Below are positions 47,584 to 63,882 of a stretch of 64,000 nucleotides of DNA, in pieces. A program made the translations under genes and the position numbers. Within the stretch, counting starts at the first letter, position 1; every line of letters begins with the position of its first letter. This DNA is from Candidatus Omnitrophota bacterium. GTDB lineage: Bacteria > Omnitrophota > Gorgyraeia > B26-G9. Location of the stretch: contig JBDRPX010000003.1 of NCBI GenBank assembly GCA_043826565.1, positions 81,293 to 145,292 of the forward strand, in the 5' to 3' direction. Below the pieces are notes generated by a model that was not told the origin of the DNA, did not search any database, and saw nothing but the letters and a program-made list of their open reading frames with translations.

Positions 47584-49109
47584 ATATAAAATTCATACAT
47601 TCAGAGTTACAGGCATTGGGCATAGAATATGTTGCCGCAGTATTGAAGAAACATGGCCATTCTGTAGAGCTTATCGTTGACCCATATTTTCCTTTTTTAT
47701 CTAAAGCGGGAAAGTTTCTTAAAAGAATCAGCGGTTGGCAGCAAAAACTCATTCGCAAAGTAATTGACGGGAATCCGGATCTAATAGCTTTTTCTGTGAC
47801 AAGTTATAACCTGGAATGGGCTTATCATATTGCCGCGGAATTGAAGAAGAATTCCTCTGTGCCGATTGTCTTTGGCGGGGTACAGGCTACACTTGTTCCC
47901 GAGGTAATTTTAACTCAGTCGGCGGCGGATTTTGTTATCTTGGGCGAGGGTGAATATGCGATGCTGGAACTCCTCCAGAGTTTTAAGACAGGGCAAGAGT
48001 ATTCAAATATCGCTAATCTATGCTATCTTAATGAGGGCAAAATCGAGACCAATTCATTGCGGCCTTTGATTGAGAATCTTGATACTTTACCTTTTCCCGA
48101 TAAAGACCTTGTTCCTTTATGGCTAAACAGAGGTTTGTATAGAATCGTAACGGGACGGGGATGCCCGGGGAGATGTACTTATTGCTGTGCTCCGATACAA
48201 GCAGATATCTATAAAGACAAAGGTGATTTTATCCGACGGCGTTCCCCGGAAAATGTAATTGCCGAGCTTAAACAGGCAAAAGTAAAATATCAGATTAAAC
48301 GCGTTCTTTTTGAGGATGATCTATTTACTTATGATAAGAATTGGCTGAGGATTTTTTCTCGACAATATAAAAAAGAAATCAATATCCCTTGTTTTATCCA
48401 TGCTACGCCTAAAAGTATTGATGATGATATTGTGAGCTTTTTAAAAAATATGTCCTGTTATTCTGTGGAGCTGGGAGTGCAAAGCCTTAAGCGGGATATA
48501 AGAGAAAAATTTCTAAAACGATACTATACCAATGACCAGATTGAAAAGACAATAATTTTGCTTAAGGGTAAAGGGATTAATTGTATTTGCGATAATATCG
48601 TGGGATTGCCGGAGGAACAAGAAGCTGATTTAGCAAGTATGGTTGAGTATTATAATAAATTGCGTCCGGGAAAAATTGAATTATTGCGGTTAGAATATTA
48701 TCCCAAAGCAGAAATTATTGAATTCTCAAGCTTAAGTAAAGATGAACTTGATAGAATAAATTTAGGAGAATTGGTGGTTTCTTCAAGGTGGCATACCCCC
48801 AAGATAAATAAAATGATGCTTCTTATCGGCTTAAGTTATATATTACCCAAGAAGATTATTTCGTATATGCTTCATAATCAAGTGTATAATCTTTTTTACC
48901 CATTTAATGATTATAATCACATTAATGAAACAATTTTTTACCTGGGTGCTTTATTAAAACGGAATAGAAAAAAAGTTTTTATTTCTTTTCGGGCAGATGT
49001 GTTTTATAAACTAAAATACATTTTTACGAAGTCTTTTAATTATAAACATTCTAAGGTTGGCGTTCGAGAGGAAAAACAAATGCTCGAATCAAACTATGTT
49101 AAGGTGTGA
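47580..49109 (+). CDS. B12-binding-domain radical SAM protein
   Basis: 'ALGIEYVAAVLKKHGHSVELIVDP'. 'IVTGRGCPGRCTYCCAP'. Confidence 0.8.
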   Translation: MNIKFIHSELQALGIEYVAAVLKKHGHSVELIVDPYFPFLSKAGKFLKRISGWQQKLIRKVIDGNPDLIAFSVTSYNLEWAYHIAAELKKNSSVPIVFGGVQATLVPEVILTQSAADFVILGEGEYAMLELLQSFKTGQEYSNIANLCYLNEGKIETNSLRPLIENLDTLPFPDKDLVPLWLNRGLYRIVTGRGCPGRCTYCCAPIQADIYKDKGDFIRRRSPENVIAELKQAKVKYQIKRVLFEDDLFTYDKNWLRIFSRQYKKEINIPCFIHATPKSIDDDIVSFLKNMSCYSVELGVQSLKRDIREKFLKRYYTNDQIEKTIILLKGKGINCICDNIVGLPEEQEADLASMVEYYNKLRPGKIELLRLEYYPKAEIIEFSSLSKDELDRINLGELVVSSRWHTPKINKMMLLIGLSYILPKKIISYMLHNQVYNLFYPFNDYNHINETIFYLGALLKRNRKKVFISFRADVFYKLKYIFTKSFNYKHSKVGVREEKQMLESNYVKV

Positions 49110-49113
49110 AAAT

Positions 49114-50178
49114 ATGCGGATAAAGTCATTCAATAATATAATTTCAAATATTGGAAAAGTTGCTTCCGCAAAATTCTTCGGGAGGATTAGGCCGTTATCA
49201 GTTGTATTTTTTCTGACTTACCGCTGCAATTTAAATTGTAAATATTGCGGACAAAGCCATGACTTAGGCAATAGCTATTCAGAGAGCAGTGAGTTGTCTG
49301 TAAAGGAAATTGAGCGTGTTTTTATTGCCTTAAAAACGGCAAAAGTAGACAAAATAAATCTTTCCGGAGGGGAGCCCTTAATAAGAAGTGATTTGGCCCA
49401 GATAATCAGTGCGGCACGTTCTCAAGGGCTTAGTATCAGTCTATCGACAAATGGTATTCTGCTGCCGGAAAGAGTTGATTTGTTAAAGGATTTAAATTTA
49501 ATCGTGTTGAGTTTAGATGGAAAAGCACAAGCCCACGATTTTATGCGTGGAGATAGTTCTCATAAGACAGCGTTGAAGGCGATTGAGGTCTCTTCCGCCA
49601 AGAACATACCGATTCTTTTATCGTGTGTGATCAGTAACAAAACAACTGCGCAGGATATTGATTTCGTGCTTGATATCTGTAATCACTATAATGCCAGGTG
49701 TGTTTTTCAGCCGGTATTGGATCGGGGGTTTTTTCGCGAAAGCTGGCAGATATGTCCGGAAATAAGCAAAAATAAGCCAAAAGTTGAGAGGGCCAGAGAA
49801 ATAATCGATTATATTAGAAAGCACAAATACTTTGGTAAAGTAATTGGGAATATGTATTGGTATAATTCAATTTGCGAATTTTATAAAAGACAACTCGATC
49901 CTAAACAGAAAAAATATCCCTGTATGGGCGGCCGGCTTTTTCTGGCAATTTCTCCCGATGGGAGTGTTATTTCTTGCGGCCCTCGAGCTCAGAAAATTTT
50001 TGATTGCAAGGCCCATCAGGAAGGTTTCAATAAAAGCTTAAAAGGAAAGATTCCGCAGATCAATTGTGAAGGCTGTTTTTGCTATTCTTATATATTAATG
50101 AATTCATTAGCAAAGTTTAATTTTGAAACGATAAAAGCATATCTTGCGCATAAACACATTGATTTTTTAAAAAATTGA
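49114..50178 (+). CDS. Radical SAM/SPASM protein
   Basis: Start placed at ATG 49114 (AAGGTG 8 nt upstream); the ORF track begins earlier, overlapping by 53 nt. 'LTYRCNLNCKYCGQS'. 'NLSGGEPLI'. C-terminal 'CMGGRLF...VISCGP...CEGCFC'. Confidence 0.75.
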   Translation: MRIKSFNNIISNIGKVASAKFFGRIRPLSVVFFLTYRCNLNCKYCGQSHDLGNSYSESSELSVKEIERVFIALKTAKVDKINLSGGEPLIRSDLAQIISAARSQGLSISLSTNGILLPERVDLLKDLNLIVLSLDGKAQAHDFMRGDSSHKTALKAIEVSSAKNIPILLSCVISNKTTAQDIDFVLDICNHYNARCVFQPVLDRGFFRESWQICPEISKNKPKVERAREIIDYIRKHKYFGKVIGNMYWYNSICEFYKRQLDPKQKKYPCMGGRLFLAISPDGSVISCGPRAQKIFDCKAHQEGFNKSLKGKIPQINCEGCFCYSYILMNSLAKFNFETIKAYLAHKHIDFLKN

Positions 50179-50196
50179 AATTTAAAGAGGCAGTTA

Positions 50197-51534
50197 ATGT
50201 TATTGGATAATGATAGAATCATAAGAAAAACTAAAAGTATTTGTCCGGAATGTCACAAGCAGCTGGAAGCGTATATTATCGAAAGAACCAATGAAATACT
50301 ATTAATTAAAAGTTGTCCGGTCCACGGTGATTATAAAGCTGTTTACTCGCGTTCCCCGGGTTCTTATAGGTCATTTCAAGAAGCATACATTCCGCTGATG
50401 TGCCGGAAGCAGGCTGATTCAGAAATAGAGGTAGTTTTGACCTACAAGTGTAATATGACTTGCCCGATATGTTATTGGGGAAAACATAAAGATATGTTCA
50501 TAGATATCGAACCAACATTTGATGAATTGGCACAATTGGTAAAAACTGATAGTAAAAGGATATGGCGCTTTACATTTACCGGAGGAGAACCGACATTAAG
50601 AAGTGATTTACCGCAGATTATTAGAATGTTCAAAAAACACGGCCGGGGAATAAGTATTAATACTAATGGGATCAAATTAGCTGATCCTGTTTATGCGCAG
50701 CAGTTGAAAGATACGGGGATCGACAGAGTAAATATCCAATTAGACGGGTTTGATCAAGAAATGGAAATTGAGTTCCGAGGAGAGAATTATTTACCTTTAA
50801 AATTTAAAGCCTTGGACAATTTAAAGAAGCTTCAAATTCCTACGGGAATTAATGCGGTTATTTCCCGGGACATGGGCGAAACACAGATTAATAATTTGCT
50901 GAATTTCGCAATTGAAAATAAATCTGTAAAATCACTCACCTGGTTAACCTTAGTTTGTCCGGGGAAAGAGAAGAAAGATTCATTGCCTAAGTATATTATG
51001 GCCGATGAAGTGCTTGATCTTATTGAAAAGCAAACCGCGGGAAAACTGTCCAAGCAAAATTTTTTAATTTTAAGAAAATTTTATTTGATCACGTCTTTAT
51101 TTTTTAATCGAGGAAGCTGCCGTTATAGTCATATGTATATTTTGTTTAGAAAAAATAATAGTTATGAAGGAATAGACCACTATCTTAATCTGGCATCAAT
51201 AAATTGTCATTTGGATACATGCTATGAGTTACATAAAAAAAATAAAATTTTGGGCTGGTTATTTTTTGTTTTTTGTTTGCCGTTTATTTGTTTGTATAAT
51301 TCGAACTCATTTGGTTTGTTAAAAGAATTTTTTGCGAGCGGGATCTCCTTTTTTATGGGGAATAATAGCTATCTAAAACCGGCTAATTTATTATACTTAA
51401 GAGTAATCACAATTTGCGATGTCCATAACTTTGATGAGGTAGGGGGGCAATGTGCGTTTGGGATTGCGTTAAAGGATAAGGACAAATTGTATAAAGATAA
51501 AATAAGGAATGTAAATATTAAAATTTCCAAATAA
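50197..51534 (+). CDS. Zinc-ribbon/rubredoxin-like N-terminus + radical SAM protein, paralog 1 of 5
   Basis: 'RKTKSICPECHK...IKSCPVHG' (CxxC...CPxH). 'LTYKCNMTCPICYWG' CxxxCxxC. 'FTGGEPTLRSDL'. Three conserved C-terminal Cys ('GSCRY','TICD','GQC'). Confidence 0.6.
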   Translation: MLLDNDRIIRKTKSICPECHKQLEAYIIERTNEILLIKSCPVHGDYKAVYSRSPGSYRSFQEAYIPLMCRKQADSEIEVVLTYKCNMTCPICYWGKHKDMFIDIEPTFDELAQLVKTDSKRIWRFTFTGGEPTLRSDLPQIIRMFKKHGRGISINTNGIKLADPVYAQQLKDTGIDRVNIQLDGFDQEMEIEFRGENYLPLKFKALDNLKKLQIPTGINAVISRDMGETQINNLLNFAIENKSVKSLTWLTLVCPGKEKKDSLPKYIMADEVLDLIEKQTAGKLSKQNFLILRKFYLITSLFFNRGSCRYSHMYILFRKNNSYEGIDHYLNLASINCHLDTCYELHKKNKILGWLFFVFCLPFICLYNSNSFGLLKEFFASGISFFMGNNSYLKPANLLYLRVITICDVHNFDEVGGQCAFGIALKDKDKLYKDKIRNVNIKISK

Positions 51535-51583
51535 TCGAGGAATATCTTTGTGATTGAAAATATGACGAAAACGAGGAGTTTTC

Positions 51584-52951
51584 ATGATAAATATTAATGA
51601 GAATGCCAGCACAAAAATTACCCGAAAAACAATGGGAGTGTGTGATGTTTGCGGGGAAAAAGTGCAAGCTTATATAACGGAGACGGACAAGGACATTTTT
51701 TTCTGCAAATCGTGCGTGAATCATGGCGATAAACAGGTGCGGATATCCAGAAAAAAATATTATAATGATCTCGAACAATTTTATTTCCCATTGATAGAAA
51801 AAAAACCGCAGTGCAGCGTGGAAATGGTAGAATTAGTGGTTACGTTCAAGTGTAATATTAGTTGCCCTATTTGCTACCTGGGAGATTTTAAAAAAAAGTT
51901 AAATGATTTTGATCCGACGCTTGAGGAAATTAATGATTTCGCGAAAGGATGTTCTTATCCGGCATTAGTCATCTCCGGAGGAGAAGCTACTTGCCGGGAA
52001 GATCTCCCGGAGATTATCGCGATATTAAAACGTTATGGAAAAACAGTTAGTCTTAATACTAACGGCATTAAATTAGCAGATTTCAACTATGCCCTTAAAT
52101 TGAAAACAGCCGGTATTGACAGGATCAATATCCAATTCACCGGATTTGACCGTGAGGCGGAAAAGGCGTTAAGAGGGGCTGATTATAATCCCGCTAAGCT
52201 GAAGGCGATTAAGAACTTAGAAAAGTTGAAAATATCGACAGGTTTAAATGCGCTGATCGTCGGGGAGGTAAATGAGGAGCAGATCGGTGGAATAATTGAT
52301 TTTGGGGTAAAAAGTGAATTTGTGAAAATGGTGAATCTAAGTGTGCTGATTTTCGTGGGGTATACTAAGAATTACCCGCAATCAAATTATTTAATGCCGG
52401 ATGACATTATTCAGCTGGCAGAAAAACAGACTAAAGGAATGATTGTTACTCAAAATGTCTATATTTTTAAAAAACTGGAAATAGTTGTATCTTCTTTTTT
52501 AAATAAAAATACTTGTTTGTACCATCAAGGATACTTGTTGGTGGTAAAAGGGGGGGCGGCGGAACCGATCGATGCGTATATAAACTTAAGAAAAATCGAA
52601 CCCTATTTAAATATGTATCAAAAAATTTATTTGCAGAATATTTTATTTGCAAAATTATACCTGTTGCTTGTTTTTCCGATCGCGTTATTGATTAATGCAA
52701 AATTTTTTAAAATATGCGGAAATTTATTTAATTATGTGTTTTCTTATTTTTTTAACAGAAAATATTTTTTAGAATCATCTTTATTGAAAACAATTGTATT
52801 TTCTGTCGAATGTGATAATTACCGCAAAGATTATGCTATGTACGGTAAAAATTGTCCCTGCAAGGCTGTTTTTTTTGTAAAACGCAATGGAACAAATTTT
52901 GAAAAACATGCGCAGCCAGTAGAGGATACTTACTGGTTTTTATGGCGCTGA
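51584..52951 (+). CDS. Zinc-ribbon + radical SAM protein, paralog 2 of 5
   Basis: 'RKTMGVCDVCGEK...CKSCVNHG'. 'VTFKCNISCPICYLG'. 'ISGGEATCREDL'. Confidence 0.6.
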   Translation: MININENASTKITRKTMGVCDVCGEKVQAYITETDKDIFFCKSCVNHGDKQVRISRKKYYNDLEQFYFPLIEKKPQCSVEMVELVVTFKCNISCPICYLGDFKKKLNDFDPTLEEINDFAKGCSYPALVISGGEATCREDLPEIIAILKRYGKTVSLNTNGIKLADFNYALKLKTAGIDRINIQFTGFDREAEKALRGADYNPAKLKAIKNLEKLKISTGLNALIVGEVNEEQIGGIIDFGVKSEFVKMVNLSVLIFVGYTKNYPQSNYLMPDDIIQLAEKQTKGMIVTQNVYIFKKLEIVVSSFLNKNTCLYHQGYLLVVKGGAAEPIDAYINLRKIEPYLNMYQKIYLQNILFAKLYLLLVFPIALLINAKFFKICGNLFNYVFSYFFNRKYFLESSLLKTIVFSVECDNYRKDYAMYGKNCPCKAVFFVKRNGTNFEKHAQPVEDTYWFLWR

Positions 52952-52981
52952 TTAAAAAATTATAATTACGGAGGGTGATGC

Positions 52982-54562
52982 GTGAAAAAGATCTTATTTG
53001 TACGATGTCCGAAGCATATGTGGCCATGGGTTAATGAGTCAGATAATTTTCTATTACCTTTAGGCCTGCCGATTTTAGCCGCGGCGATCAGAGAGAAGAT
53101 TAAAAACAGAGTTGAAGTGAAAATTATTGATTGCCCTCCGCTTAAAATCGGCTGGAAAAGTCTGGCGGATTTGATTAAAAAGGAAAATCCTGATTTTGTC
53201 GGAGCCGGAGAGGAAGCTCTTTATCAGCATGAAGCGATCAGATTATTTGAGCTTACCAAGCAAATCAACCCCAGGATAATAAATATCGCCGGAGGACACT
53301 ATTTTTCCTGGATGGTTGAGGATAGTTTAAAGAACTACCCAATTGATATTATCGTTAAATTTGAAGCAGAAGAGACGATCGTGGAACTTTTGGAAGCTTT
53401 GCTGGAAAAAAAGGATTTAGCGGCGGTTAAAGGTATTGCCTTTAAAAAAGACGGCCGGGTAATTACAACCCCGCCGCGGCCGATTATCTGCAACCTTGAT
53501 TTAATTCCGATTCCCGCATATGATTTAATGCCCATGCGTAAGTATGGTGATAAAGCTATTTTTTGGCCGGAAAGCGCGACTATTGAAGGCAGCCGCGGAT
53601 GTATAGATACATGCAGTTATTGTTCTTTATGGACTTTTTGGGGGAAGCATAATGATACGGATAATAAGCAGGATAAGATCGGCGCGACTCCTTTTTATCG
53701 GCAAAAGAGCGTGGGGCGGGTAATGCAGGAGATAGAGATTTTGTATGAGAAATATAACCGCAGACTGCTGCTATGGGCAGACCCTACTTTTAATGTGAAC
53801 CCTGCGTGGACAGAGGAACTTTGCGATGAGATCCTGAAGCGAAATTATAAATTAGAACATTGGGTTTTTTTGCGTACTGACTTTGCTTTGCGTGATGCAA
53901 AATCCGGATTACTGGATAAAATGGTTAGGGCCGGGATTGTGCATCCTCTCTTTGGCGTAGAGAGAGCTACGGCTGATGAATGGGAAAAGTTATCTAAACA
54001 TGGACAAAAAAGTGATGAAATAAAAGAATTGTTTCATTTAATGCGGGATAAATACCCTCAGGTTTTTCGTCAGGCGACATTTGTTACCTGCCTGCCTTTT
54101 GATAATGAAAAGACAATGATGGATTTAGCCAAATATGCTGTAGAAATAGACTGTGATTTTCCTGTGTTTCATCCGGTAACTCCGGTTCCCGGAACATATC
54201 TTTATGAGGAAGTCATCGCTAAAGAATACCTGGAAGAAAAAGATCTAAAAGAGGCCTATTGGGAATATCCATTGTTAAAAAATATCCATGGGCTCTCCCG
54301 AACCGATTTAGCGCGATTGAACAGGAAAGCCCAGTTATATTGTATATTAGGAAATTTTAAGACGATGTTAAAAGGTGTTTTTTCTAAATATCCGAGTAAA
54401 AGATTCCGGTATCGGGAAGTCTTAAGAGTCCTTTTTCTGAAATCATTTCAAATGCTGTCTCTGAAGATAAAAGAGATATTTTTTAAACCGACGGATCTGG
54501 AAAAGAAGATTCCCCAGTCTCTGTTTTTTATAATGGAAAAACCTAAATGGTATGATAAGTAA
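52982..54562 (+). CDS. B12-binding-domain radical SAM protein
   Basis: 'LPLGLPILAAAIREKIKNRVEVKIIDC'. 'TIEGSRGCIDTCSYCSLW'. Confidence 0.75.
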   Translation: MKKILFVRCPKHMWPWVNESDNFLLPLGLPILAAAIREKIKNRVEVKIIDCPPLKIGWKSLADLIKKENPDFVGAGEEALYQHEAIRLFELTKQINPRIINIAGGHYFSWMVEDSLKNYPIDIIVKFEAEETIVELLEALLEKKDLAAVKGIAFKKDGRVITTPPRPIICNLDLIPIPAYDLMPMRKYGDKAIFWPESATIEGSRGCIDTCSYCSLWTFWGKHNDTDNKQDKIGATPFYRQKSVGRVMQEIEILYEKYNRRLLLWADPTFNVNPAWTEELCDEILKRNYKLEHWVFLRTDFALRDAKSGLLDKMVRAGIVHPLFGVERATADEWEKLSKHGQKSDEIKELFHLMRDKYPQVFRQATFVTCLPFDNEKTMMDLAKYAVEIDCDFPVFHPVTPVPGTYLYEEVIAKEYLEEKDLKEAYWEYPLLKNIHGLSRTDLARLNRKAQLYCILGNFKTMLKGVFSKYPSKRFRYREVLRVLFLKSFQMLSLKIKEIFFKPTDLEKKIPQSLFFIMEKPKWYDK

Positions 54563-54587
54563 TTAAACATGGAAAGTAAGGAGATTT

Positions 54588-55949
54588 GTGTCAACAATAA
54601 TCCGTAAGACTAAGAGTAGATGTCTTAAATGCGGTTCGATTGTCCCGGCAGCGGTGATTAAAAAAGAAGGAAAAGTTTTTCTCGAAAAAAACTGTCCGGA
54701 GCATAATTTTACCAGTTTGCTTATTTCTGATAATGCGAGTTCCTATGAAGACTTAGAAAGATATTATTTTACGGTAATGCCGGATAACGCTCGACAGGAG
54801 TCTATTGAAATTGCCGTGACTTTTCGTTGTAATATGGATTGTCCGATATGCGCTTGGGGTACTAATTATCGGGCTAGTATGAATAATGCCGGAGACCCTT
54901 CTCTATTAGAAATAAGAGAGTTTTTAAAAACAAATGATACGCCTGTTGTAAGATTGTCCGGAGGGGAAGCTACTTGCCGTGAGGATTTAACTGAGGTTAT
55001 CCGCATGGTTAAAAAGATGGGGAAAGCCGTAGGAATATCTACCAATGGCTTGAAGATTGCTGATTTTGATTATCTTAAGCAATTAAAAGAAGCCGGGTTA
55101 GATGAAATCTATCTTACCCTTGATGGATTTGATCCTGACGTTGAAAAATTTATGCGCGCTAAGGATTATTTGCCGTTTAAAATGCGTGCGTTAGACAATT
55201 TAAAAAAACTTAATATTATAACCGGTTTAAACATGCGGATATTAAAGGGGATCAATGAGGCGGAAATTCCTAAAATTATCGATTATGTGGCAAAAAATAG
55301 TTTTATTAAATTACTAAATATCGGAACTGTTAATTGGGCGGGAAATGCATCGTCTTGGTCATTGGATAAGTACTTGATGCCGGATCAGCTTATCGATATA
55401 GTTGTTGATACCTCATCGGGAAAGCTAAATAGAAATGCTATTCGGACATTTCAAAAATTATTGCTTGCCGTAAATTCTTTTTTTTCGAAAAGATGGTGTT
55501 TTTATGATGCCGGAAATTTTTTGATTATACGTCAAAATGGTCAATATGAATCATTGGAAAAGCATTTAGATCTACAGGCTCTTGAGAAAGTTCTTAATCG
55601 GTATGCTGTTTTTTATGAACGTAATGTTTTATTGGCAAAATTATACCTTATTTTTGCGGGAATAGGCAGTATTCGTTTTATAAAGTCCAAACTGTTTTTT
55701 AAGGAGATATTGGTTAAGGGGTTAGGATTTATTTCGGGAAACCGGGACTTTTTAAAAACTGACTCATTTTTGTTTTTACTTATGCATACTGCTTGTGACA
55801 GCTATAAGATTGATTATGGGGTATCAAAAAATTGCATGACTACATTTGCTTTTAAAGGAACAGATGGAATACTGCGTGTGCAGGGAAATGCAGCACAAGT
55901 CTGTGAAAGTCTTTCTGATATGGGGCATTGTTCTCGGAATGATAAGTAA
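54588..55949 (+). CDS. Zinc-ribbon + radical SAM protein, paralog 3 of 5
   Basis: 'RKTKSRCLKCGSIVPAAVIKKEGKVFLEKNCPEHNF'. 'VTFRCNMDCPICAWG'. 'LSGGEATCREDL'. Confidence 0.6.
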   Translation: MSTIIRKTKSRCLKCGSIVPAAVIKKEGKVFLEKNCPEHNFTSLLISDNASSYEDLERYYFTVMPDNARQESIEIAVTFRCNMDCPICAWGTNYRASMNNAGDPSLLEIREFLKTNDTPVVRLSGGEATCREDLTEVIRMVKKMGKAVGISTNGLKIADFDYLKQLKEAGLDEIYLTLDGFDPDVEKFMRAKDYLPFKMRALDNLKKLNIITGLNMRILKGINEAEIPKIIDYVAKNSFIKLLNIGTVNWAGNASSWSLDKYLMPDQLIDIVVDTSSGKLNRNAIRTFQKLLLAVNSFFSKRWCFYDAGNFLIIRQNGQYESLEKHLDLQALEKVLNRYAVFYERNVLLAKLYLIFAGIGSIRFIKSKLFFKEILVKGLGFISGNRDFLKTDSFLFLLMHTACDSYKIDYGVSKNCMTTFAFKGTDGILRVQGNAAQVCESLSDMGHCSRNDK

Positions 55950-55972
55950 TTGAATAAGGGAAGTTAGCTTTT

Positions 55973-57325
55973 ATGGAGAAAAAAATAATTCGTAAGACGA
56001 AAAGCCGGTGTCTTAAGTGCGGTTCGATTGTCCCGGCAGCGGTGATTGAAAAAGAAGGGAAAGTCTATCTTGAAAAAAAATGTCCGGAGCATAATTTTAC
56101 CAGTTTGCTTATTTCCGATAACTCCGATTTATATAGAGACCTGGAGAACTTTTATTTTTCAGTTATGCCTGATAACTTGAAATCATGGGCCAGAGAGATA
56201 GATCTTACTTTTCGCTGCAATATGAATTGCCCGATATGTGCTTGTGATCGTAAGTTTAGAGCTGCCAAGGCTTGTTTTGAACCAACAATAGAGGAAATTA
56301 AATATTTTTTAGAAAAAAGTAAAATCCCGGTATTTAAATTATCCGGAGGGGAACCTACTTGCCGGGAGGATTTGCTGGAAATTATCAGGTTAGTGAAAAG
56401 TTTCAAGAAAACCATTGTGATTAATACTAATGGTTTGAAGTTATCCGATCTTGAGTATGTGCGAAATTTAAAGCAAGCGGGTGTTGATAGTATCAATATG
56501 TCCTTCGATGGGTTTGATGAAAAAGTCGAGAAGTACTTTCGCGGGAAAAATTATCTGCCGGATAAAATAAGAGCTTTAAATAATTTAAGGCAACTGGATA
56601 TTCCGACTGGGTTGAATATTACGATTGCTAAAGGTATTAATGAAACAGAAATTCCTAAAATTATCGACTATGCCGCAAAAAATAAAAATATAAAAATGCT
56701 GAGTTTTGGAACATTCAGTTTTATGGGAAATGCCCGGAATTGGGATTTTAGCTGCTATCTTATGCCGGATCAGCTTAAAAATTTAATTGTTGAGAAGACA
56801 AATGGAAAAATTAGTCAGAATAGTATAAGGATATTTCAGAAGTTATTTATTGGAATGAATTCATTTTTTTTCCAGAAATTCTGCTTGTATGATTCCGGAT
56901 CAACGATAATATTTCGTGAAAAAGGTGATTATACGTCGTTAGATAGACATATAAACCTTAAACCGATAGAAAAACATCTTGATAAATATGCTCTAATTTT
57001 TAAATACAGTCCAATTTTAGCAAGAGCATTTTTGACTATCGTTGGAATTTTCAGCTTAAGGGAAATTAGGTCAGGGCTGCTGGCCAGGGAACTATTTTCA
57101 CGCGGAATAAGTTTTTTTAATAAAAACAGTAAGTATTTAAGGACAAAATCTCTTATATATATAAATATTAATACAATTTGTGATAATTATAAAATTGATT
57201 ACAAAATTGCGAAAAACTGTATGTATGGATTAGTGTTTAAGAGCAGCGACAATATATTGAAACTGAGAGGCACCGGCTCGGAGATTTGTGAAAAAATTTT
57301 AAATTCAGAAATTAGTGAATTTTAA
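55973..57325 (+). CDS. Zinc-ribbon + radical SAM protein, paralog 4 of 5
   Basis: First 45 aa nearly identical to paralog 3 ('RKTKSRCLKCGSIVPAAVIEKEGKVYLEKKCPEHNFTSLLISDN'). 'LTFRCNMNCPICAC'. Confidence 0.6.
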   Translation: MEKKIIRKTKSRCLKCGSIVPAAVIEKEGKVYLEKKCPEHNFTSLLISDNSDLYRDLENFYFSVMPDNLKSWAREIDLTFRCNMNCPICACDRKFRAAKACFEPTIEEIKYFLEKSKIPVFKLSGGEPTCREDLLEIIRLVKSFKKTIVINTNGLKLSDLEYVRNLKQAGVDSINMSFDGFDEKVEKYFRGKNYLPDKIRALNNLRQLDIPTGLNITIAKGINETEIPKIIDYAAKNKNIKMLSFGTFSFMGNARNWDFSCYLMPDQLKNLIVEKTNGKISQNSIRIFQKLFIGMNSFFFQKFCLYDSGSTIIFREKGDYTSLDRHINLKPIEKHLDKYALIFKYSPILARAFLTIVGIFSLREIRSGLLARELFSRGISFFNKNSKYLRTKSLIYININTICDNYKIDYKIAKNCMYGLVFKSSDNILKLRGTGSEICEKILNSEISEF

Positions 57326-57359
57326 ATTAGTTCTTATGCGGCTATAAAAGGAAAGAAAA

Positions 57360-58430
57360 ATGAAATCTCAAAAAAATAGGATTGAACATTCATTTCCGTG
57401 CATTGGAAAAGCAGAGCAATCGGGTATTCTTGCGGTAATTAAAAGCAGTTTTTTAGCAGAAGGTGCTCAGGTCGAGTGTTTTGAAAAGGAGATGTGTCGG
57501 TATATAGGGTGTGATTATGCTATCGCGGCCAGTACCGGGACTTCGGCCTTGCATCTGGCTCTTTTAGCTTTAGAAGTTGGCAAAGGGGATGAGGTGATTC
57601 TTCCTAATTATGTTTGCCGTTCGGTACTAAATGCTGTGCAGTATTGCCAAGCTACGCCGGTATTGTGTGATGTTCAAACGAAAACATACAATATTTCCCT
57701 GGATGAGGTTAAGGAAAAAGTCAATGGCCGGACAAAGGCAATTATTGTCGCGCATATGTTTGGTTGTCCTGTTCCGGTGGACAAATTGAGAATAAAAGGT
57801 ATTCCGATAATAGAAGATTGTGCGCAAAGCATTGGAGCGCAATACAAGGGGAAGAAGGTTGGCAGCTTAGGAGATATTGCAGTTTTTTCTTTTGAGGGAA
57901 CAAAAACTATTACTACCGGAGAGGGTGGAATGGTAGCGACAAGCTCTAAAAAACTTTGCAAAAAATTAAAATCCTTAAAAGAACCGTATGCGAATGATTG
58001 TATGCCCAAGTATACTTATCGGATGAGCAGTCTGCAAGCGGCGGTTGGCCGAATTCAATTAAAGAGGCTGCCGGGATTTATCAAAAAACGCCGCCAGATT
58101 GCGCGGCAATATGCTAAGGCATTTGCTTTAGATGGGGTAGAGCTTCCGGTTGCCCCTCAGGATATGATGCCTACTTTTCACCGGTTTATGCTGGATGTTA
58201 GAGAAATTAATATTGATTGTTTTTTACCGGCATGCTGGAAGAAGAAGGTTATGGTTAAGCGTCCGATAAAACCGTACCTGCTTAATCAGTATTTAGGTAT
58301 TTCAAGTAAATTATTTCCGAACTCAGAATATATTATGAAGCATTGCGTTTCTGTGCCGATATATCCGTCTTTAAAGAAAAATGAGGTTACAAGAATAATT
58401 AAAGTTGTTTGCGGAGAACTAAAAAAATAG
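57360..58430 (+). CDS. DegT/DnrJ/EryC1-family PLP-dependent aminotransferase
   Basis: 'DYAIAASTGTSALHLALLAL'. 'IIEDCAQSIGAQYKGKKVGSLGD'. 'FSFEGTKTITTGEGGMV' (PLP Lys). Confidence 0.75.
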   Translation: MKSQKNRIEHSFPCIGKAEQSGILAVIKSSFLAEGAQVECFEKEMCRYIGCDYAIAASTGTSALHLALLALEVGKGDEVILPNYVCRSVLNAVQYCQATPVLCDVQTKTYNISLDEVKEKVNGRTKAIIVAHMFGCPVPVDKLRIKGIPIIEDCAQSIGAQYKGKKVGSLGDIAVFSFEGTKTITTGEGGMVATSSKKLCKKLKSLKEPYANDCMPKYTYRMSSLQAAVGRIQLKRLPGFIKKRRQIARQYAKAFALDGVELPVAPQDMMPTFHRFMLDVREINIDCFLPACWKKKVMVKRPIKPYLLNQYLGISSKLFPNSEYIMKHCVSVPIYPSLKKNEVTRIIKVVCGELKK

Positions 58431-58431
58431 A

Positions 58432-59379
58432 ATGATGAAATACGGATTTCGTAATAAAAGAGAAGAATTATTTCCGCTGATGCTGGTGTTGGAAATAACC
58501 AATGTCTGCAATTACCGGTGTATACATTGTCCTTATCCGGAGATTTCGAAGCATAAGGACTATAAACCAAAATTCATGGATTGGACTGTTTACCAAAAGA
58601 TTGTTGATGAAACTGCCGGGTTTAAAGATACAATTTTCCGGTTTGTTTGTGATGGAGAGCCGATGATGCATCCTGATTTCTTGCGAATGGTAGAATATGT
58701 CAAAGTAAAAAATATTTCACCGGTATGTGTTACGACAAACGGTTATTTTCTTTCCGAATATGCGGCTAAGAAATTAATCGACTGCGGTTGTGATATTATT
58801 GAAGTGAGTCTTGATGCTCTATATAGAGAATCTTATGATCGGGTGAGGGCCGGTGGTGATTTTGATCGGGTTGTGGCCCAGACAAAACAATTAATCAAGA
58901 TAAGAGATACTTCTGCTAAGGATTTGAAAATTATGGTAAGTGCCATAGATCAGCCTTTAGCAGATGGTGAATTGGAAGCGTTTAAACAGTATTGGCAGGA
59001 AAAGGCAGACAAGGTAATTATCAGAAAGTTTACCAGCATTGGGGGGCTTGTGGATAGCAATGTGGAGAATGAACAAAGTTCCCAGGACGGGAAGAGATGG
59101 CCTTGTCCTTTGCTCTGGCGCAGGCTTTTCGTTAATGTTGACGGCTATGCAGAATTTTGTGTTGACGATTGGCTGGATGAGTCAATTATCGGGGATCTTA
59201 GGAGAGATGATATTTCCAGTATTTGGAAAAGTGACTTTTATCAAAATTTAAGAAATTTACATAACTCCGGATGCTTTGAAGAGGTAAAAAAATGTGCGGA
59301 ATGCTGTGACTGGACAGCACGGACTTGGGATTACGATTATTTTCACGCAATTAAAGAAATTTTTACGCCGAGTATTTAG
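58432..59379 (+). CDS. Radical SAM/SPASM protein
   Basis: 'LEITNVCNYRCIHCPYP'. 'CDGEPMMH'. C-terminal 'WPCPLLW...FCVDDW...CAECCD'. Confidence 0.8.
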   Translation: MMKYGFRNKREELFPLMLVLEITNVCNYRCIHCPYPEISKHKDYKPKFMDWTVYQKIVDETAGFKDTIFRFVCDGEPMMHPDFLRMVEYVKVKNISPVCVTTNGYFLSEYAAKKLIDCGCDIIEVSLDALYRESYDRVRAGGDFDRVVAQTKQLIKIRDTSAKDLKIMVSAIDQPLADGELEAFKQYWQEKADKVIIRKFTSIGGLVDSNVENEQSSQDGKRWPCPLLWRRLFVNVDGYAEFCVDDWLDESIIGDLRRDDISSIWKSDFYQNLRNLHNSGCFEEVKKCAECCDWTARTWDYDYFHAIKEIFTPSI

Positions 59380-59393
59380 GGAAGAAGTTTAAA

Positions 59394-60743
59394 ATGAAAA
59401 TTATAGATAGAACACTGGGGATGTGCCCGAAATGTATGGTTTGGGTAAAAAGTCAGGTTATTGATCGCGATGGGGAAGTTTTTTTGCAGAAAATTTGTCC
59501 GGAACACGGGATGACAGAAATGCTTTTGTGCAAAGACGCGGCACACTTTAGCAGCTTAAGGGATTTTTATTTTAAAACTCATAACAAAATATTTTCTCAA
59601 ACACGGTATCTTTGTTTTTTGACTCCCCAGTGCAATCTTTCCTGTCCGATATGTTTCCTTGATCCTCATTCCGGGCATAGACAAGATGTTAATATTGAAG
59701 ATCTGAGAGTGAAGTTAAAAGACAATAAGCAGGAGTTGATTTTATTTGGCGCTGAACCTGCTTGCCGGGATGATTTATTTGAAGTGATTGCTTATTTGCG
59801 AGAAAGGCAACACTCGGTCAGTTTTTATACAAACGGGATAAGATTAGCGGATTATCGTTACTGTGAAAAAATCAAGGAGGCAAAAATAGACAAGGTTTAT
59901 CTGCAGTTTGACGGATTTGATGATAAAGTATATGAGATTCTGCGGGGCAAGAAGCTTGTGGATATAAAATCAAAGGTTTTGGATAATTTAAAACAATTAA
60001 ACCTTCCGGTTGTTTTGGATGTTACTGTGGTCAAGGGACTGAATGATGATGAGGTAGGTAAAGTGTTTGATTTTTCTATGGCTAATGATTTTATTCGGGC
60101 GGTTAATCTTATCGCTTATGTGCGTTCCGGGGGCGGAGGCGATTATCTAAGTGAGTGTTCAACAATGCCTGATGATATTATTGAGTATATGTCTAAATAT
60201 ACGGGGGGGAGGATTTCCCGGGAAAAGATCAGGGTTTTTCAGAAGCTTTTATATGTTTATATGGCATTTTTAAAAAGAAGAACATGCTTTTATATTCAGT
60301 ATTTCTGGGTTTATCGATGCGCTGATGGTAAATATATAACTCTTAATGAGATCCTGGATTTTACTGTTTTGGAAAAAGTGTTAGACAGATATCTGTCAAT
60401 AGACATAAGGATGGGTAGACTGCTGGCGATATTGTACTTAAGTTTATCATTACCTCGCCTGATTTTTGCAGTGAAAAATATTCGTCTTTTTTTTGAATTG
60501 ATTAAGATGGCGTTTGCGCATAGCTTTAATAAAGGTGAGTACGCCAGTAAAAGCAGTAAATTTTTACAGTTAATTTTTACTACTGCCTGTGATCCGCATA
60601 AATCGGATATGAAAATTGTCGAACGCTGTCACGTCGGGATTATCTATAAAAATGGGCAGGGGAACCTTAATGTTGATGATGAGAACGGCAGATATTTATT
60701 AAATCAGGAAATACTTAGCAAGCAGAAAGCGGGAATAGTATAA
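59394..60743 (+). CDS. Zinc-ribbon + radical SAM protein, paralog 5 of 5
   Basis: 'RTLGMCPKCMVWV...QKICPEHG'. 'LTPQCNLSCPICFLD'. C-terminal conserved Cys 'RTCFY','TACDPH','ERCH'. Confidence 0.6.
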   Translation: MKIIDRTLGMCPKCMVWVKSQVIDRDGEVFLQKICPEHGMTEMLLCKDAAHFSSLRDFYFKTHNKIFSQTRYLCFLTPQCNLSCPICFLDPHSGHRQDVNIEDLRVKLKDNKQELILFGAEPACRDDLFEVIAYLRERQHSVSFYTNGIRLADYRYCEKIKEAKIDKVYLQFDGFDDKVYEILRGKKLVDIKSKVLDNLKQLNLPVVLDVTVVKGLNDDEVGKVFDFSMANDFIRAVNLIAYVRSGGGGDYLSECSTMPDDIIEYMSKYTGGRISREKIRVFQKLLYVYMAFLKRRTCFYIQYFWVYRCADGKYITLNEILDFTVLEKVLDRYLSIDIRMGRLLAILYLSLSLPRLIFAVKNIRLFFELIKMAFAHSFNKGEYASKSSKFLQLIFTTACDPHKSDMKIVERCHVGIIYKNGQGNLNVDDENGRYLLNQEILSKQKAGIV

Positions 60744-62323
60744 TGCGCGTTGGTTTTGTTTATTCCGAAATGGAAACTTTAGGGATCGAGCATTTGTCGA
60801 GTTTTCTTAAAAAGCAGGGGCATCAAACCCGGCTCTTTTTTGATCCGCAATTATTTATGGATACTATTTCCAGCCGTCCGGTACTTAATAAGATATTAGG
60901 ATATCGGGATCATTTACTTAAACAGATTGATGAATTCAAACCGGATATCCTCGCGTTTTCTGTGCTGAGTACTAATAATCATTGGGCAAAATTATTTGCT
61001 AAAGAGATAAAAATACATACGGATATTCCCATAGTATTCGGGGGGATACATCCTACTTTGGCTCCGGAGGAAGTTATTAAGCTTGGTTTTGTTGACCATG
61101 TTATTGTTGGCGAAGGGGAAGAAGCCTTATGCGAGCTTGTGGAAAATCTTAATAATCTCAAAAATCTTAGCGAGATTAAGAATGTCTGGACAAAAATCAA
61201 TGGCAAAATCGTCCGTAATCCGGTACGGCCGCTGATTGAAGATCTTGATTCGCTACCTTTCCCGGATAAGGAAATGTTTTATCAGGTCATGCCTTATTTA
61301 AGTAAACATTATACGATAGTTACCGGACGGGGGTGTCCGTATTCATGTACTTTTTGTTCAAACCACGCTTTACGGAATATAAGCAATAGTGATAAACATT
61401 TTTTAAGAAGAAGGTCTCCGGAGAATGTTATTGCCGAATTGAACCAAGCAAAAAGTAAGTACCAGGTAAAAGATATTTTCTTTGATGATAGTACTTTTAC
61501 CTATGATAAAAAATGGTTAAAACGTTTTTCGGACCTTTACCGCGGACATATTAATCTGAATTGTTTCTGCTGGGTGCATCCTTCAGAGATAGATGAGGAA
61601 ACAGTCGGATATCTTAAGAACATGAATTGCCGGGCCGTGGAAATGGGGGTGGAGAGCACGAACCCTCAAATCCGGGAAAAATGGCTGCATCGATATTACT
61701 CTAATGAGCAGGTTGCCCGGGCGCTGAGGTTATTTAAAAAACATAAGATTTTTTGCGTAGTTGATAATATTATCGGGTTGCCGGAAGAGAAAATATCCGA
61801 TTTAGAAGACATGGTAAGCTTTTACAATGAGATCAGGCCGGAAAAGGTTTATGTGTTTGAATTGCGTCCATTTCCTAATACTCAGATGTATGAGATGAGT
61901 AAAGAATATGCAGCTATTCATAATAATGACCGGGATGACCTTAGGCCGTTTACTTTGTCGGTATACCGGAACAAAGTTTTTAAACAAATTATAATGCTGA
62001 CGCTGATGATTGAGTTCCTGCCCAAAAAAGCCATAAGTTTTTTATTACGCAAAAAGCTGTACAGATTTTTGCCGGCATTTGACGTTTATAATTTTCTGGA
62101 AATAGTGCCTTTTTTTCTTAATTTTTTAAAAAGAGAAAAACGTTGGTTTCCTATTCGCGGAACAAGACACCGGTACATATTCTTCGGATTGAAAATTCTT
62201 AAAAACTATTTTTCTGGCAATTCCCCGGGGGAAGACTGTAAAAACAGTATTCCTTTAAAAGAAAATAGCGTTGATATTGTGTTGCCGGAGAAAACAAAAG
62301 AAGAGGTTCTGATTAATAACTGA
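60743..62323 (+). CDS. B12-binding-domain radical SAM protein
   Basis: 'LGIEHLSSFLKKQGHQTRLFFDPQLF'. 'IVTGRGCPYSCTFCSNH'. Confidence 0.8.
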   Translation: MRVGFVYSEMETLGIEHLSSFLKKQGHQTRLFFDPQLFMDTISSRPVLNKILGYRDHLLKQIDEFKPDILAFSVLSTNNHWAKLFAKEIKIHTDIPIVFGGIHPTLAPEEVIKLGFVDHVIVGEGEEALCELVENLNNLKNLSEIKNVWTKINGKIVRNPVRPLIEDLDSLPFPDKEMFYQVMPYLSKHYTIVTGRGCPYSCTFCSNHALRNISNSDKHFLRRRSPENVIAELNQAKSKYQVKDIFFDDSTFTYDKKWLKRFSDLYRGHINLNCFCWVHPSEIDEETVGYLKNMNCRAVEMGVESTNPQIREKWLHRYYSNEQVARALRLFKKHKIFCVVDNIIGLPEEKISDLEDMVSFYNEIRPEKVYVFELRPFPNTQMYEMSKEYAAIHNNDRDDLRPFTLSVYRNKVFKQIIMLTLMIEFLPKKAISFLLRKKLYRFLPAFDVYNFLEIVPFFLNFLKREKRWFPIRGTRHRYIFFGLKILKNYFSGNSPGEDCKNSIPLKENSVDIVLPEKTKEEVLINN

Positions 62324-63882
62324 TGAAGATTGCTTTTATAAATAATGCAAATGAAAGTTTGGGGATTGAATATCTCTCAGCTGCTTTAAAACAGCAGGGA
62401 CATCAGGTGAGAGTATTCATTGATCCGCAATTATTTAATGATGAAAATATAAGGTTTTCTGTGTTAGAAAAGATTTTTGACTATCGTTGGGAATTAGTCA
62501 AAGACGTGGTTGATTTTGCTCCGGATCTGATTGGATTTTCCGTGGTAAGTGATTTTTATAAATGGGCCTGCTCAGTAGCCGCTCAAATAAAATTCTGTTA
62601 TGAAAAACCAATTATATTCGGCGGTATCCATCCGACATCTTTACCGGAACAAGTGCTCAGAAATAATTTTGTGGACATGGTATGTGTCGGAGAAGGCGAA
62701 GCTGCCCTGGTAGAAGTTGTTGCGTGTCTAGAGCGGGGAGAATGGCCGGAAAAAATCGAAAATATCTGGACCAAAAAAAACGGTGCGATAATTAAAAATA
62801 AGGTAAGACCGTTAGTAAGTGACCTGAACTTGCTTCCGTATCCGGATAAGGAATTGTTTTATAAAGAGAGCCGGCATTATGAGAAAGGGTATTTTACAAT
62901 GGCGGCGCGCGGGTGTCTTTATGCCTGTTCATATTGTCACCATTCATATTTAAAAAAGATGTATAATGGCGCTTCGTACTATCGCTGCCGAAGCGTGGAA
63001 AATGTGATCAAAGAACTGGAAAGAAATTTTATCAGGCATAAACATAAAATTATTCGTTTTTCAGATGATATTTTTCCGTTTGAAAAGCAATGGCTGAGAG
63101 AGTTTGCTGCAAAATTCCCGAAACGGATCAATGCTCCGTATATCTGTTATCTGCATCCGCATACAACAGATCAAGAGACGGTGTCTTTGCTTAAAAAAAG
63201 CGGTTGTCGGGAAGTACAGCTGGGAGTACAGACGCTTTACGCGAATACCCAAAAAGAAATACTAAATCGCCATGTTGCCCAAAAAAGGTGGGAAGAACTT
63301 ATTTTGCTTTTAAGAAAATCAAAGATAAGGATCACTGCGGAAAATATTATTGGGATTCCGCATCAGAGTGAGGAGGAAATAAAAGATCTGGTCCGGTTTT
63401 ACTGTAAGAATAAAGTAGATAGAATACATGTTTTTTGGCTGAGATATTATCCCCGGACGAAAATCACCGAGCAGTTTAAACCGGAGCAGTTTGACGGACA
63501 GGGGCTGCAGACAAATACTTTTACGCAAGGAGGCGATGTTTATAGCAAGCAGTTAAGTAAATTGCGGGTATTATTCGTTTTGCTTAATTTTCTTCCGCCC
63601 GGAGTGATATATTTTATCCTTGAAAAGAAAATTTATAAATACACTTGGCCGGTTTCATTATTTCTGCTGGATTTAATATCGAATATTTTCAGCGGTTCTT
63701 ATGCGGATAAGATAACAAGACAAAGAGAATTTCAGCGTTATTTAATTTATATAAAAAGAAGTTTAGGAGCATATAATGAAAGAGTTTGGGGTTTCCTTAG
63801 TGATGCCTGTTTTAAACGAACAGGAGATCATTGCCGAGACCATCAGAATATTTTTAAAAGACTTATCCGGTCTTTTCGATAA
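62323..63882 (+). CDS. B12-binding-domain radical SAM protein (close paralog of 60743..62323)
   Basis: 'LGIEYLSAALKQQGHQVRVFIDPQLF'. 'TMAARGCLYACSYCHHS'. Confidence 0.8.
   Translation: MKIAFINNANESLGIEYLSAALKQQGHQVRVFIDPQLFNDENIRFSVLEKIFDYRWELVKDVVDFAPDLIGFSVVSDFYKWACSVAAQIKFCYEKPIIFGGIHPTSLPEQVLRNNFVDMVCVGEGEAALVEVVACLERGEWPEKIENIWTKKNGAIIKNKVRPLVSDLNLLPYPDKELFYKESRHYEKGYFTMAARGCLYACSYCHHSYLKKMYNGASYYRCRSVENVIKELERNFIRHKHKIIRFSDDIFPFEKQWLREFAAKFPKRINAPYICYLHPHTTDQETVSLLKKSGCREVQLGVQTLYANTQKEILNRHVAQKRWEELILLLRKSKIRITAENIIGIPHQSEEEIKDLVRFYCKNKVDRIHVFWLRYYPRTKITEQFKPEQFDGQGLQTNTFTQGGDVYSKQLSKLRVLFVLLNFLPPGVIYFILEKKIYKYTWPVSLFLLDLISNIFSGSYADKITRQREFQRYLIYIKRSLGAYNERVWGFLSDACFKRTGDHCRDHQNIFKRLIRSFR

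Follow-up and report, generated by a model that had tools for sequence, protein, structure and literature searches.

A short, tandemly repeated branch of the tetraether lipid synthase lineage of radical SAM proteins in an envelope island of Candidatus Omnitrophota

Tetraether lipid synthase (Tes, or GDGT-MAS) is, to our knowledge, the sole structurally and mechanistically characterised member of its lineage of radical S-adenosylmethionine (SAM) proteins (rSAMs). It couples two inert methyl carbons via a cluster-bound C-S intermediate, a rare kind of chemistry. Here we describe an array of five zinc-ribbon rSAM (ZnR-rSAM) genes of that lineage, located between positions 50197 and 60743 of a 64-kb stretch of DNA from a Candidatus Omnitrophota bacterium (assembly GCA_043826565.1, contig JBDRPX010000003.1, positions 81,293 to 145,292 of the forward strand). 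We call the whole 64-kb stretch the window, and coordinates without a locus name refer to it; L-numbers denote related loci and P-numbers representative proteins. The five proteins are homologous to archaeal GDGT-MAS/Tes over their full length, through the C-terminal domain, and they belong to a short form that is a distinct, undescribed branch of the Tes/GDGT-MAS rSAM lineage.

The known protein provides the frame for the comparison. In GDGT-MAS, an iron site is formed by C9-x2-C12-x20-C33-x2-H36, an N-terminal auxiliary cluster ([Fe4S4]N) is bound by C73, C77, C80 and a conserved His, and a C-terminal cluster is held by three Cys and a labile, fully conserved Met439; the C-terminal domain supplies amphipathic helices to the second lipid pocket, and Tyr459, which is not essential for Tes activity, lies 4.2 Å from the lipid terminus (PMC9433317). 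Surveys have recognised Tes homologues by BLASTP at E<1e-50 with an identity of >20-30% (PMC8941075), and Omnitrophota are not named among the phyla with Tes homologues in the text of the Black Sea survey. The initial annotation of the window had described five open reading frames (ORFs) of ~450 aa and suggested a link to GDGT-MAS/Tes (MJ0619-type). All five ORFs are present on the + strand, intact and 445-455 aa long, as follows:

50197-51534, + strand: paralog 1, a short Tes-like zinc-ribbon rSAM of 445 aa, with PF23545 (aa 9-52) and PF04055; C16, C19, C40 and H43 at the Zn/Fe site, C85, C89 and C92 in the radical SAM (RS) motif, C308, C407 and C419 near the C-terminus.
51584-52951, + strand: paralog 2, 455 aa, with PF23545 (aa 14-55) and PF04055; C20, C23, C44 and H47; C90, C94 and C97; C311, C410 and C424.
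54588-55949, + strand: paralog 3, 453 aa from a GTG start, with PF23545 and PF04055; C12, C15, C36 and H39; C81, C85 and C88; C304, C403 and C416.
55973-57325, + strand: paralog 4, 450 aa, the copy used for the AlphaFold2 model.
59394-60743, + strand: paralog 5, 449 aa, the most divergent copy, directly after a DegT-SPASM gene pair; C11, C14, C35 and H38; C80, C84 and C87; C298, C399 and C412.

In a five-way comparison, the paralogs share 25-52% pairwise identity, with paralog 5 at 25-32% to the other four. The genes between 47580 and 63882 are all encoded on the + strand and either overlap or follow one another with gaps of at most 49 bp, an operon-like arrangement.

The suggested link to Tes held at the level of sequence, profile and predicted structure. 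All five paralogs match both PF23545 (Zn_ribbon_HMPTM, named after MJ0619; E=7e-8 to 9e-16) and PF04055 (E=1e-19 to 1e-27), and their best NCBIfam scores are to Tes (NF045702, 138-176 bits), followed by TrsS (NF045646, 135-164 bits) and then MoaA. The best sequence match in the PDB, by phmmer, is GDGT-MAS itself (7TOL; E=9e-42, residues 7-62 and 74-284). The AlphaFold2 model of paralog 4 (pLDDT 94.3, pTM 0.93) matched 7TOM/7TOL in Foldseek with E=2e-32 and a TM-score of 0.80, compared to at most 0.44 for the next best structure, and 410 of its 450 residues superpose on GDGT-MAS, including the C-terminal lipid-pocket domain. In the predicted structure, therefore, the overall Tes fold (rubredoxin, RS core, and C-terminal lipid-pocket and cluster domains) is retained. 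For profile comparison, we used the ~45 full-length relatives of paralog 4 (30-55% identity, at least 92% coverage), almost all of which come from Omnitrophota-type metagenome-assembled genomes (MAGs) or metagenomes and past which there is a clear drop to Tes-/TrsS-type proteins aligning over only 55-83% of the length. The homology search also returned an exact match to paralog 4, encoded on a 206-kb contig of a Candidatus Omnitrophota MAG. The alignment of 45 members of this clade with 24 validated Tes proteins by hhalign extended over 405 columns with a probability of 100% (E=2e-62).

The motifs that bind metal in Tes are conserved in part. The C-x2-C-x20-C-x2-H zinc-ribbon/rubredoxin site has exactly the same spacing in all five paralogs, and its Cys residues are kept in 45 of 45 clade members and its His in 44; the sequence around it varies somewhat more than the C-P-x-H first described, since paralog 2 reads C-V-N-H. 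Each paralog has one CX3CX2C RS motif (C85, C89 and C92 invariant in paralog 1 numbering; C82, C86 and C89, together with G125 and E127 of the GGE motif, invariant in that of paralog 4), and the SGGE motif noted after it is found in most copies, with FGAEPACRDDL in its place in paralog 5. Three further Cys residues (C308, C407 and C419 in paralog 1) align and are invariant in all five, as had been proposed, although the segment given as T(A/I)CD is VECD in paralog 2, with its Cys in place. This C-terminal triad is invariant in all 45 full-length clade members and recurs in 71 of 119 more distant full-length representatives, far above chance; about half of the clade has an additional Cys near residue 439. 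The earlier suggestion that these residues could ligate an auxiliary cluster gained weight from their location in the part of the protein where Tes binds its C-terminal cluster. None of the five paralogs matched the SPASM domain PF13186 at E<=0.1, nor was a twitch domain found in any of them. We also noted a Cys immediately after the SAM-binding motif (GGEPTC; C130 of paralog 4, window 56360-56362) in 89% of the Omnitrophota clade, at a position occupied by Val or Leu in Tes/TrsS and most other short-form members.

Judged by sequence, the five paralogs are nevertheless not Tes, because they fall outside the NCBIfam cut-off and the survey BLAST threshold, and differ at the [Fe4S4]N motif, at Met439 and at Tyr459. 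Their NF045702 scores (138-176 bits) are far from the 450-bit equivalog cut-off; all 24 Tes controls match the model at E<=1e-130, P0051 with 673 bits. In an nr-sized search space, the best BLASTP pair was paralog 4 with P0046 (E=1.9e-43, 30% identity) and most pairs lay between 1e-14 and 1e-36; thus, no paralog came within the E<1e-50 survey threshold. Conservation of the columns of the [Fe4S4]N motif, which binds a surface cluster in Tes, is 93-100% among Tes/TrsS relatives; in the clade, 44-45 of 45 members (varying by column) have gaps there, such that the clade has one CX3CX2C per protein, compared to two in almost all Tes/TrsS-type relatives (the second ~25 residues before the RS motif). 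At the C-terminal cluster, Met439 has an equivalent in 24 of 24 validated Tes proteins and in none of the 45 clade members, which have Ser or Asn there. The Cys of the Tes 'PFC' motif (24/24) likewise falls in gaps and has no counterpart in the clade. Finally, the His and Tyr of the Tes I-H-Y motif, each present in 24 of 24, are mostly Glu (30/45) and Ile (29/45) in the clade, and where Tes has Phe106, past the RS motif, the clade has Ala, Cys or His.

The C-terminal site thus appears to be altered rather than lost. The 'RC' ligand Cys of Tes is kept exactly (C416 in paralog 4), and the D-x-Y-x-x-D segment that precedes it is common to Tes and the clade (D404, Y406, D409). The counterpart of the Tes 'HCG' Cys is C304, which is placed a few residues earlier, ahead of the same beta-hairpin. 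Of the Cys positions at this site in Tes, one is thus preserved precisely ('RC'), one only approximately ('HCG') and one not at all ('PFC'). The remaining Cys of the clade triad, C403 (TxCD), is invariant and clade-specific, three residues past the lost Met position. This pattern probably describes a three-Cys, site-differentiated C-terminal [4Fe-4S] site with a changed ligand set. By homology, each protein would then have three metal sites, compared to four in Tes: a rubredoxin-like Cys3His site, the SAM-cleaving [4Fe-4S] cluster and a re-wired C-terminal auxiliary [4Fe-4S] cluster.

Within the C-terminal helical domain of the clade there is a strongly hydrophobic helix at approximately residues 345-365. 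With a window of 19 residues, the highest Kyte-Doolittle value per protein is on average 1.88 for the clade, where 36 of 45 proteins reach 1.6 or more, compared to 1.32 for Tes/TrsS. Judged from the sequences, the hydrophobicity of this helix, together with the apolar Ile at the Tyr459 position, favours a hydrophobic substrate or an association with the membrane.

The short form makes up a large family that has yet to be characterised. Searched at E<1e-30, a profile built from the five paralogs retrieved the representatives of 902 clusters (50% identity), and nearly all of the top 150 are 430-460 aa long with a single CX3CX2C. We found nothing in literature searches on the short-form subfamily, nor on the function of TrsS. 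Our scan of genome collections relied on a single narrow peptide pattern, and its matches were nearly all Omnitrophota loci; it has little bearing on the wider distribution. In a neighbour-joining tree, the clade is monophyletic and stands apart from Tes/TrsS. The same tree identifies orthologs in other genomes for paralogs 1, 2 and 5 (for paralog 1, L005 11385-12734; for paralog 2, a gene in L005 and four lineage-specific copies in L003; for paralog 5, positional orthologs behind DegT-SPASM in L003 and L005), while paralogs 3 and 4 are a lineage-specific sister pair. Since paralogs 1, 2 and 5 have orthologs elsewhere, the paralogs are old and presumably distinct in function. Some representatives are fusions (P0127, P0175, P0181, P0214 and P0233): P0127 joins a B12-binding rSAM (B12-rSAM) to a ZnR-rSAM, and several have N-terminal hemerythrin domains, one of these being fused to a P-type ATPase as well. 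A 918-aa ORF in L009 (9986-12742) scores 980 bits against the clade profile and comprises two fused tandem ZnR-rSAM genes or a read-through.

Paralogs 3 and 4 had been taken for a recent duplication on account of a near-identical N-terminus of ~45 aa. The near-identity is real, but it is limited to a short tract, and the two proteins are only 52% identical overall, which speaks against a recent duplication of the whole gene. The tract covers the zinc-ribbon codons of both genes:

54593-54733, + strand: conversion tract, paralog 3 side.
55981-56121, + strand: conversion tract, paralog 4 side.

These ~140 nt are ~90% identical, with exact runs of 30 and 35 nt. The first ~45 codons of the two genes have 90% amino acid and 84-93% nucleotide identity, with 73-87% at third positions, compared to ~60% nucleotide and ~45% third-position identity outside the tract. 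Because high third-position identity is confined to these codons, we conclude that the tract is a product of gene conversion and not of whole-gene duplication.

The array does not stand alone, and its neighbours recur elsewhere. At least 10 distinct Omnitrophota-type loci have 2-6 ZnR-rSAM copies in a conserved cassette, in which a DegT gene (57360-like) is followed by a SPASM rSAM (58432-like) and a ZnR-rSAM, often then by a second DegT (22869-like) and ZnR-rSAM, and then by 2-4 B12-rSAMs and sometimes a MiaB-like rSAM. The order of the DegT-SPASM-ZnR triad is kept in L001, L003, L005, L006, L008, L009/L010 (which have near-identical gene order), L011, L013 and L014; L017 has the SPASM-ZnR pair with no DegT match ahead of it. 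B12-rSAMs are a constant partner of short-form genes. In the window, the genes around the array, together with a second pair of rSAM genes farther upstream, are:

30783-32183, + strand: HpnJ-like B12-rSAM (HpnJ 173/578 bits, full-length alignment).
32180-33163, + strand: SPASM rSAM by Pfam.
47580-49109, + strand: B12-rSAM (PF02310 and PF04055; best NCBIfam TIGR04072, 119/360 bits), with orthologs in L003 and L005.
49057-50178, + strand: small rSAM directly upstream of paralog 1 (PF04055 and Fer4_12), likely starting at ATG 49114.
52982-54562, + strand: BchE-like B12-rSAM (PF02310 and PF04055; BchE 165/481 bits), with orthologs in L003 (1032 bits) and L005 (846 bits).
57360-58430, + strand: DegT/DnrJ/EryC1 sugar-type aminotransferase (PF01041, E=1e-84), PseC/LegC/ArnB-like, below cut-offs.
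58432-59379, + strand: SPASM rSAM (PF04055 and PF13186; best NCBIfam spiro-SPASM, 111/250 bits), with orthologs of 340-438 bits in ten distinct loci (L009/L010 counted once).
60743-62323, + strand: B12-rSAM (PF02310 and PF04055), its start overlapping the stop of paralog 5, with orthologs in L003 and L005.
62323-63882, + strand: B12-rSAM (PF02310 and PF04055), of a type present in 2-4 copies behind the ZnR genes of nearly all related loci.

This inventory agrees with the neighbours first reported (B12-rSAMs at 52982, 60743 and 62323, the SPASM rSAM at 58432 and the aminotransferase), apart from the small rSAM at 49114, which had also been called a SPASM protein: it has no Pfam SPASM match at E<=0.001, and has a Cys-rich tail and orthologs upstream of ZnR genes in L003 and L005. 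No partner gene reached an NCBIfam cut-off, and thus names such as TIGR04072 ('lipid biosynthesis B12 rSAM'), HpnJ, BchE, spiro-SPASM and PseC/LegC are leads only. Homologues of the 30783 and 32180 genes flank a ZnR gene in L022 (6979-13301) and L026 (5633-10822), which suggests that an HpnJ-like B12-rSAM, a SPASM rSAM and a short Tes-like gene form a three-enzyme core that is split in the window.

All of the window belongs to a single + strand island, in which 21 rSAM genes encode 22 rSAM domains between them. Also encoded are six PMT_2-type glycosyltransferases of the GT-C class, two glycosyltransferases each of the GT1 and GT2 types and YfhO-like membrane proteins, as well as a carbamoyltransferase, an AsnB-type amidotransferase, a WbqC protein, two GDSL proteins and two DegT aminotransferases. 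Rfam detected no RNA element in the window, such as a cobalamin or SAM riboswitch. Several other features of the island were apparent. The GC skew is positive (+0.12 to +0.27) in each 2-kb bin. A 1443-aa ORF (4092-8423) fuses a B12-binding rSAM module to a second rSAM/SPASM module, and a 1013-aa ORF (38-3079) has rSAM/SPASM in its last ~350 residues, preceded by ~650 aa with no Pfam match. Two multi-pass membrane proteins of ~610 aa are encoded at 39682-41511 (weakly YfhO-like) and 45727-47583 (no Pfam match), the latter with conserved counterparts immediately upstream of the cassette in L001, L003 and L005.

More distant short-form members, which we confirmed with a hidden Markov model (HMM) of the clade, are found in a range of contexts:

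L021: seven B12-rSAMs, DUF2079 and U32 proteins; ambiguous context.
L022: rSAM, U32 and B12-rSAM; ambiguous context.
L023 (Undinarchaeales): aminotransferase and rSAM; ambiguous context.
L025: PMT_2 and SPASM genes; glycan-like context.
P0282: KASIII/type III PKS, enoyl-CoA hydratase, B12-rSAMs and a weak PEMT (a family of lipid methyltransferases); lipid-like context.
L026: CrtI-like FAD enzyme, B12-rSAM and PEMT; lipid-like context.
L027: PMT_2, GT2, AsnB, carbamoyltransferase and GT1; glycan-like context.

We had considered L024/P0326 (with LGT and PEMT) as a further relative in a lipid context, and removed it as a long-form Tes/TrsS-type protein with two CX3CX2C motifs that scores 346 bits with the Tes HMM compared to 203 bits with that of the clade. 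Two other observations concern these loci. Peptidase_U32-family genes adjoin short-form relatives in two unrelated contigs (L021 15260-17100 and L022 9347-10444); this is the family of the O2-independent hydroxylases UbiU and UbiV. In L022, which is part of a 7.6-Mb genome, three tandem 78-aa ORFs (165-1456) lie ~6 kb upstream of the short-form relative and could be repeated small-protein or precursor genes.

We considered what the array might do. Our preferred reading, which we hold tentatively and at somewhat less than an even chance, is that the five proteins act on hydrophobic, lipid-anchored glycoconjugates of the envelope by Tes-like radical H-abstraction, cluster capture and formation of a C-C or C-S bond. 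Specifically, SAM would be reductively cleaved to a 5'-deoxyadenosyl radical, which would take H from a hydrophobic chain in a Tes-like tunnel, at an sp3 carbon that is not activated; the site-differentiated auxiliary cluster would hold the substrate radical or be redox-coupled to it, and a second SAM turnover would yield a C-C bond, or possibly a C-S bond. The likely substrates would be lipid-anchored, either glycolipid tails or polyprenyl-linked intermediates, and divergent paralogs would serve different positions or substrates. Lipid-anchored envelope glycoconjugates are likely because the DegT/SPASM/B12 cassette lies inside an envelope island rich in GT-C genes. We count for this reading that the helical domain of the Tes lipid pocket is kept in the clade and is more hydrophobic there, as well as the presence of distant relatives in both lipid-like (P0282, L026) and glycan-like (L025, L027) contexts.

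Several observations weigh on the other side. Apart from rSAMs, the partners that recur most regularly in Omnitrophota belong to the DegT family, and the known substrates of DegT enzymes are keto-sugars and cyclitols, not lipids. There are no fatty-acid, ether-lipid or polyprenyl synthesis genes in the 64-kb window. Most of the Tes-diagnostic active-site residues differ (the equivalents of Phe106, Met439, His458 and Tyr459), and the mixed contexts of the distant relatives indicate that the family may be functionally heterogeneous.

In a rival reading, the proteins would tailor soluble intermediates of a surface glycan (sugars, nucleotide sugars or cyclitols), with the free iron of the cluster binding substrate as in MoaA and the hydrophobic helix serving as a mere membrane anchor; the reactions could include C-C bond formation, epimerisation, deoxygenation or S insertion. 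The DegT-SPASM-ZnR and DegT-ZnR orders are conserved in many genomes, the aminotransferases resemble PseC, LegC, ArnB and RfbH, and the island is otherwise a glycan locus, with L025 and L027 similar in flavour. After Tes/TrsS, moreover, the nearest proteins are MoaA, BlsE, viperin and DesII, all of which are nucleotide or nucleotide-sugar enzymes, and the loss of Met439 and Tyr459 points to altered chemistry. However, such a role does not account for the retention of the entire Tes C-terminal lipid-pocket domain, as seen in the superposition of 410 of 450 residues, for the hydrophobic residue (Ile) at the Tyr459 position, or for those members in acyl- or isoprenoid-type contexts without sugar genes; the MoaA-like scores of 62-98 bits reflect the shared rSAM core only. 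We regard tailoring of soluble intermediates as rather unlikely, though a serious competitor.

The initial annotation had speculated that the genes could make or modify membrane-spanning lipids, and synthesis of such lipids by the array is possible. In its strict form, the paralogs would be true Tes equivalents that couple core-lipid tails into membrane-spanning lipids (like brGDGTs, which are branched glycerol dialkyl glycerol tetraethers, or diacids), and their B12 and SPASM partners would act as Grs, Gmm and Gms do, adding rings, methyl groups and cross-links. The full-length match of the modelled fold to GDGT-MAS fits this form, as do the C-terminal cluster site and the lipid-pocket domain, both kept and the latter more hydrophobic. 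The enzyme classes also parallel, by analogy, the archaeal GDGT toolbox, since the genes for Tes, Gms (SPASM) and Gmm/Grs (B12) are found grouped in archaeal as well as bacterial genomes (PMC11214058), and ElbD and Mss homologues have been reported from some Omnitrophota MAGs. Against this, the paralogs fail to qualify as Tes by NF045702, BLASTP, [Fe4S4]N, Met439 and Tyr459 alike, and the B12 and SPASM partners are under every family cut-off. One Tes is enough in archaea, whereas 2-6 ancient paralogs are retained here, and the cassette is tied to DegT, WbqC and GT-C/GT1/GT2 genes, not to lipid-core genes. The premise that bacterial relatives join lipid tails did not survive as stated: for Tes homologues it is a hypothesis only (PMC8941075, PMC11868695), and the enzyme with proven activity, Mss, is only remotely related to Tes (PMC13159169). 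Overall, we consider core-lipid coupling unlikely.

A bolder form, which we rate as quite improbable, would make the cassette a bacterial counterpart of the archaeal tetraether toolbox that works on a glycolipid: the Tes-like paralogs would form one C(sp3)-C(sp3) link after another, B12-rSAMs would add methyls or rings, and SPASM and DegT enzymes would build head groups. If this were true, Omnitrophota would make an envelope glycolipid of a kind not seen before, membrane-spanning or cross-linked, with aminated or carbocyclic head groups and tail-to-tail, macrocyclic or cross-chain links, and its synthesis would be driven by a re-wired auxiliary cluster without the Met ligand and without the N-terminal cluster.

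Maturation of a ribosomally synthesised precursor peptide (RiPP) has very little probability, even though many partner rSAMs weakly match SPASM peptide-maturase families and three small tandem ORFs occur upstream of the distant relative in L022, and we reject it because there is no room for precursor genes (no free-standing ORF of at least 25 aa in 47.0-64.0 kb; all gaps in 47580-63882 at most 49 bp), there is no SPASM/twitch or RiPP recognition element domain in the five paralogs, and the context is glycan-like with no protease, transporter or leader-peptide genes.

Whichever substrate is used, the short family is a natural experiment in which the Tes fold was kept while one cluster was dropped and the catalytic one re-wired, and it shows which parts of Tes are dispensable. 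With hundreds of 50%-identity clusters, it is an overlooked sister of Tes. Published Tes surveys (E<1e-50) miss the short form, and thus the inferences made about tetraether or brGDGT producers neither include nor exclude it. Moreover, an envelope island with 21 rSAM genes suggests that this host-associated, uncultivated phylum has unexplored anaerobic chemistry of glycolipids or glycans.

Among known systems, Mss and Gms are rSAMs for which it has been proposed that an auxiliary cluster helps them to join lipid chains through C(sp3)-C(sp3) bonds; Gms is a SPASM/twitch enzyme without a rubredoxin domain (PMC13459092). MoaA lacks the zinc ribbon of the paralogs and has another C-terminal domain; ~254 residues superpose, and the scores with MoaA models (62-98 bits) are below the cut-offs of 231-325. 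TrsS has the same zinc ribbon and rSAM architecture at about the same sequence distance as Tes (135-164 bits, below the TrsS cut-off of 490 bits), and its Cys before the C-terminal beta-hairpin aligns with C304 of the clade; unlike the clade, TrsS-type proteins retain the [Fe4S4]N CX3CX2C...H, the Met and the 'PFC' Cys, and often have CC pairs or selenocysteine. With Tes, finally, the paralogs share the rubredoxin-like C-x2-C-x20-C-x2-H site, the MoaA-like rSAM core, the C-terminal helical/cluster domain and the D-x-Y-x-x-D...C segment, but they have no [Fe4S4]N domain, are ~40-60 aa shorter, and occur as 2-6 tandem copies in glycan-type islands, compared to a single gene near lipid genes for Tes. 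What is new here is thus the Tes fold, and probably Tes radical logic, with another cluster complement, other active-site residues, another copy pattern and another genomic setting.

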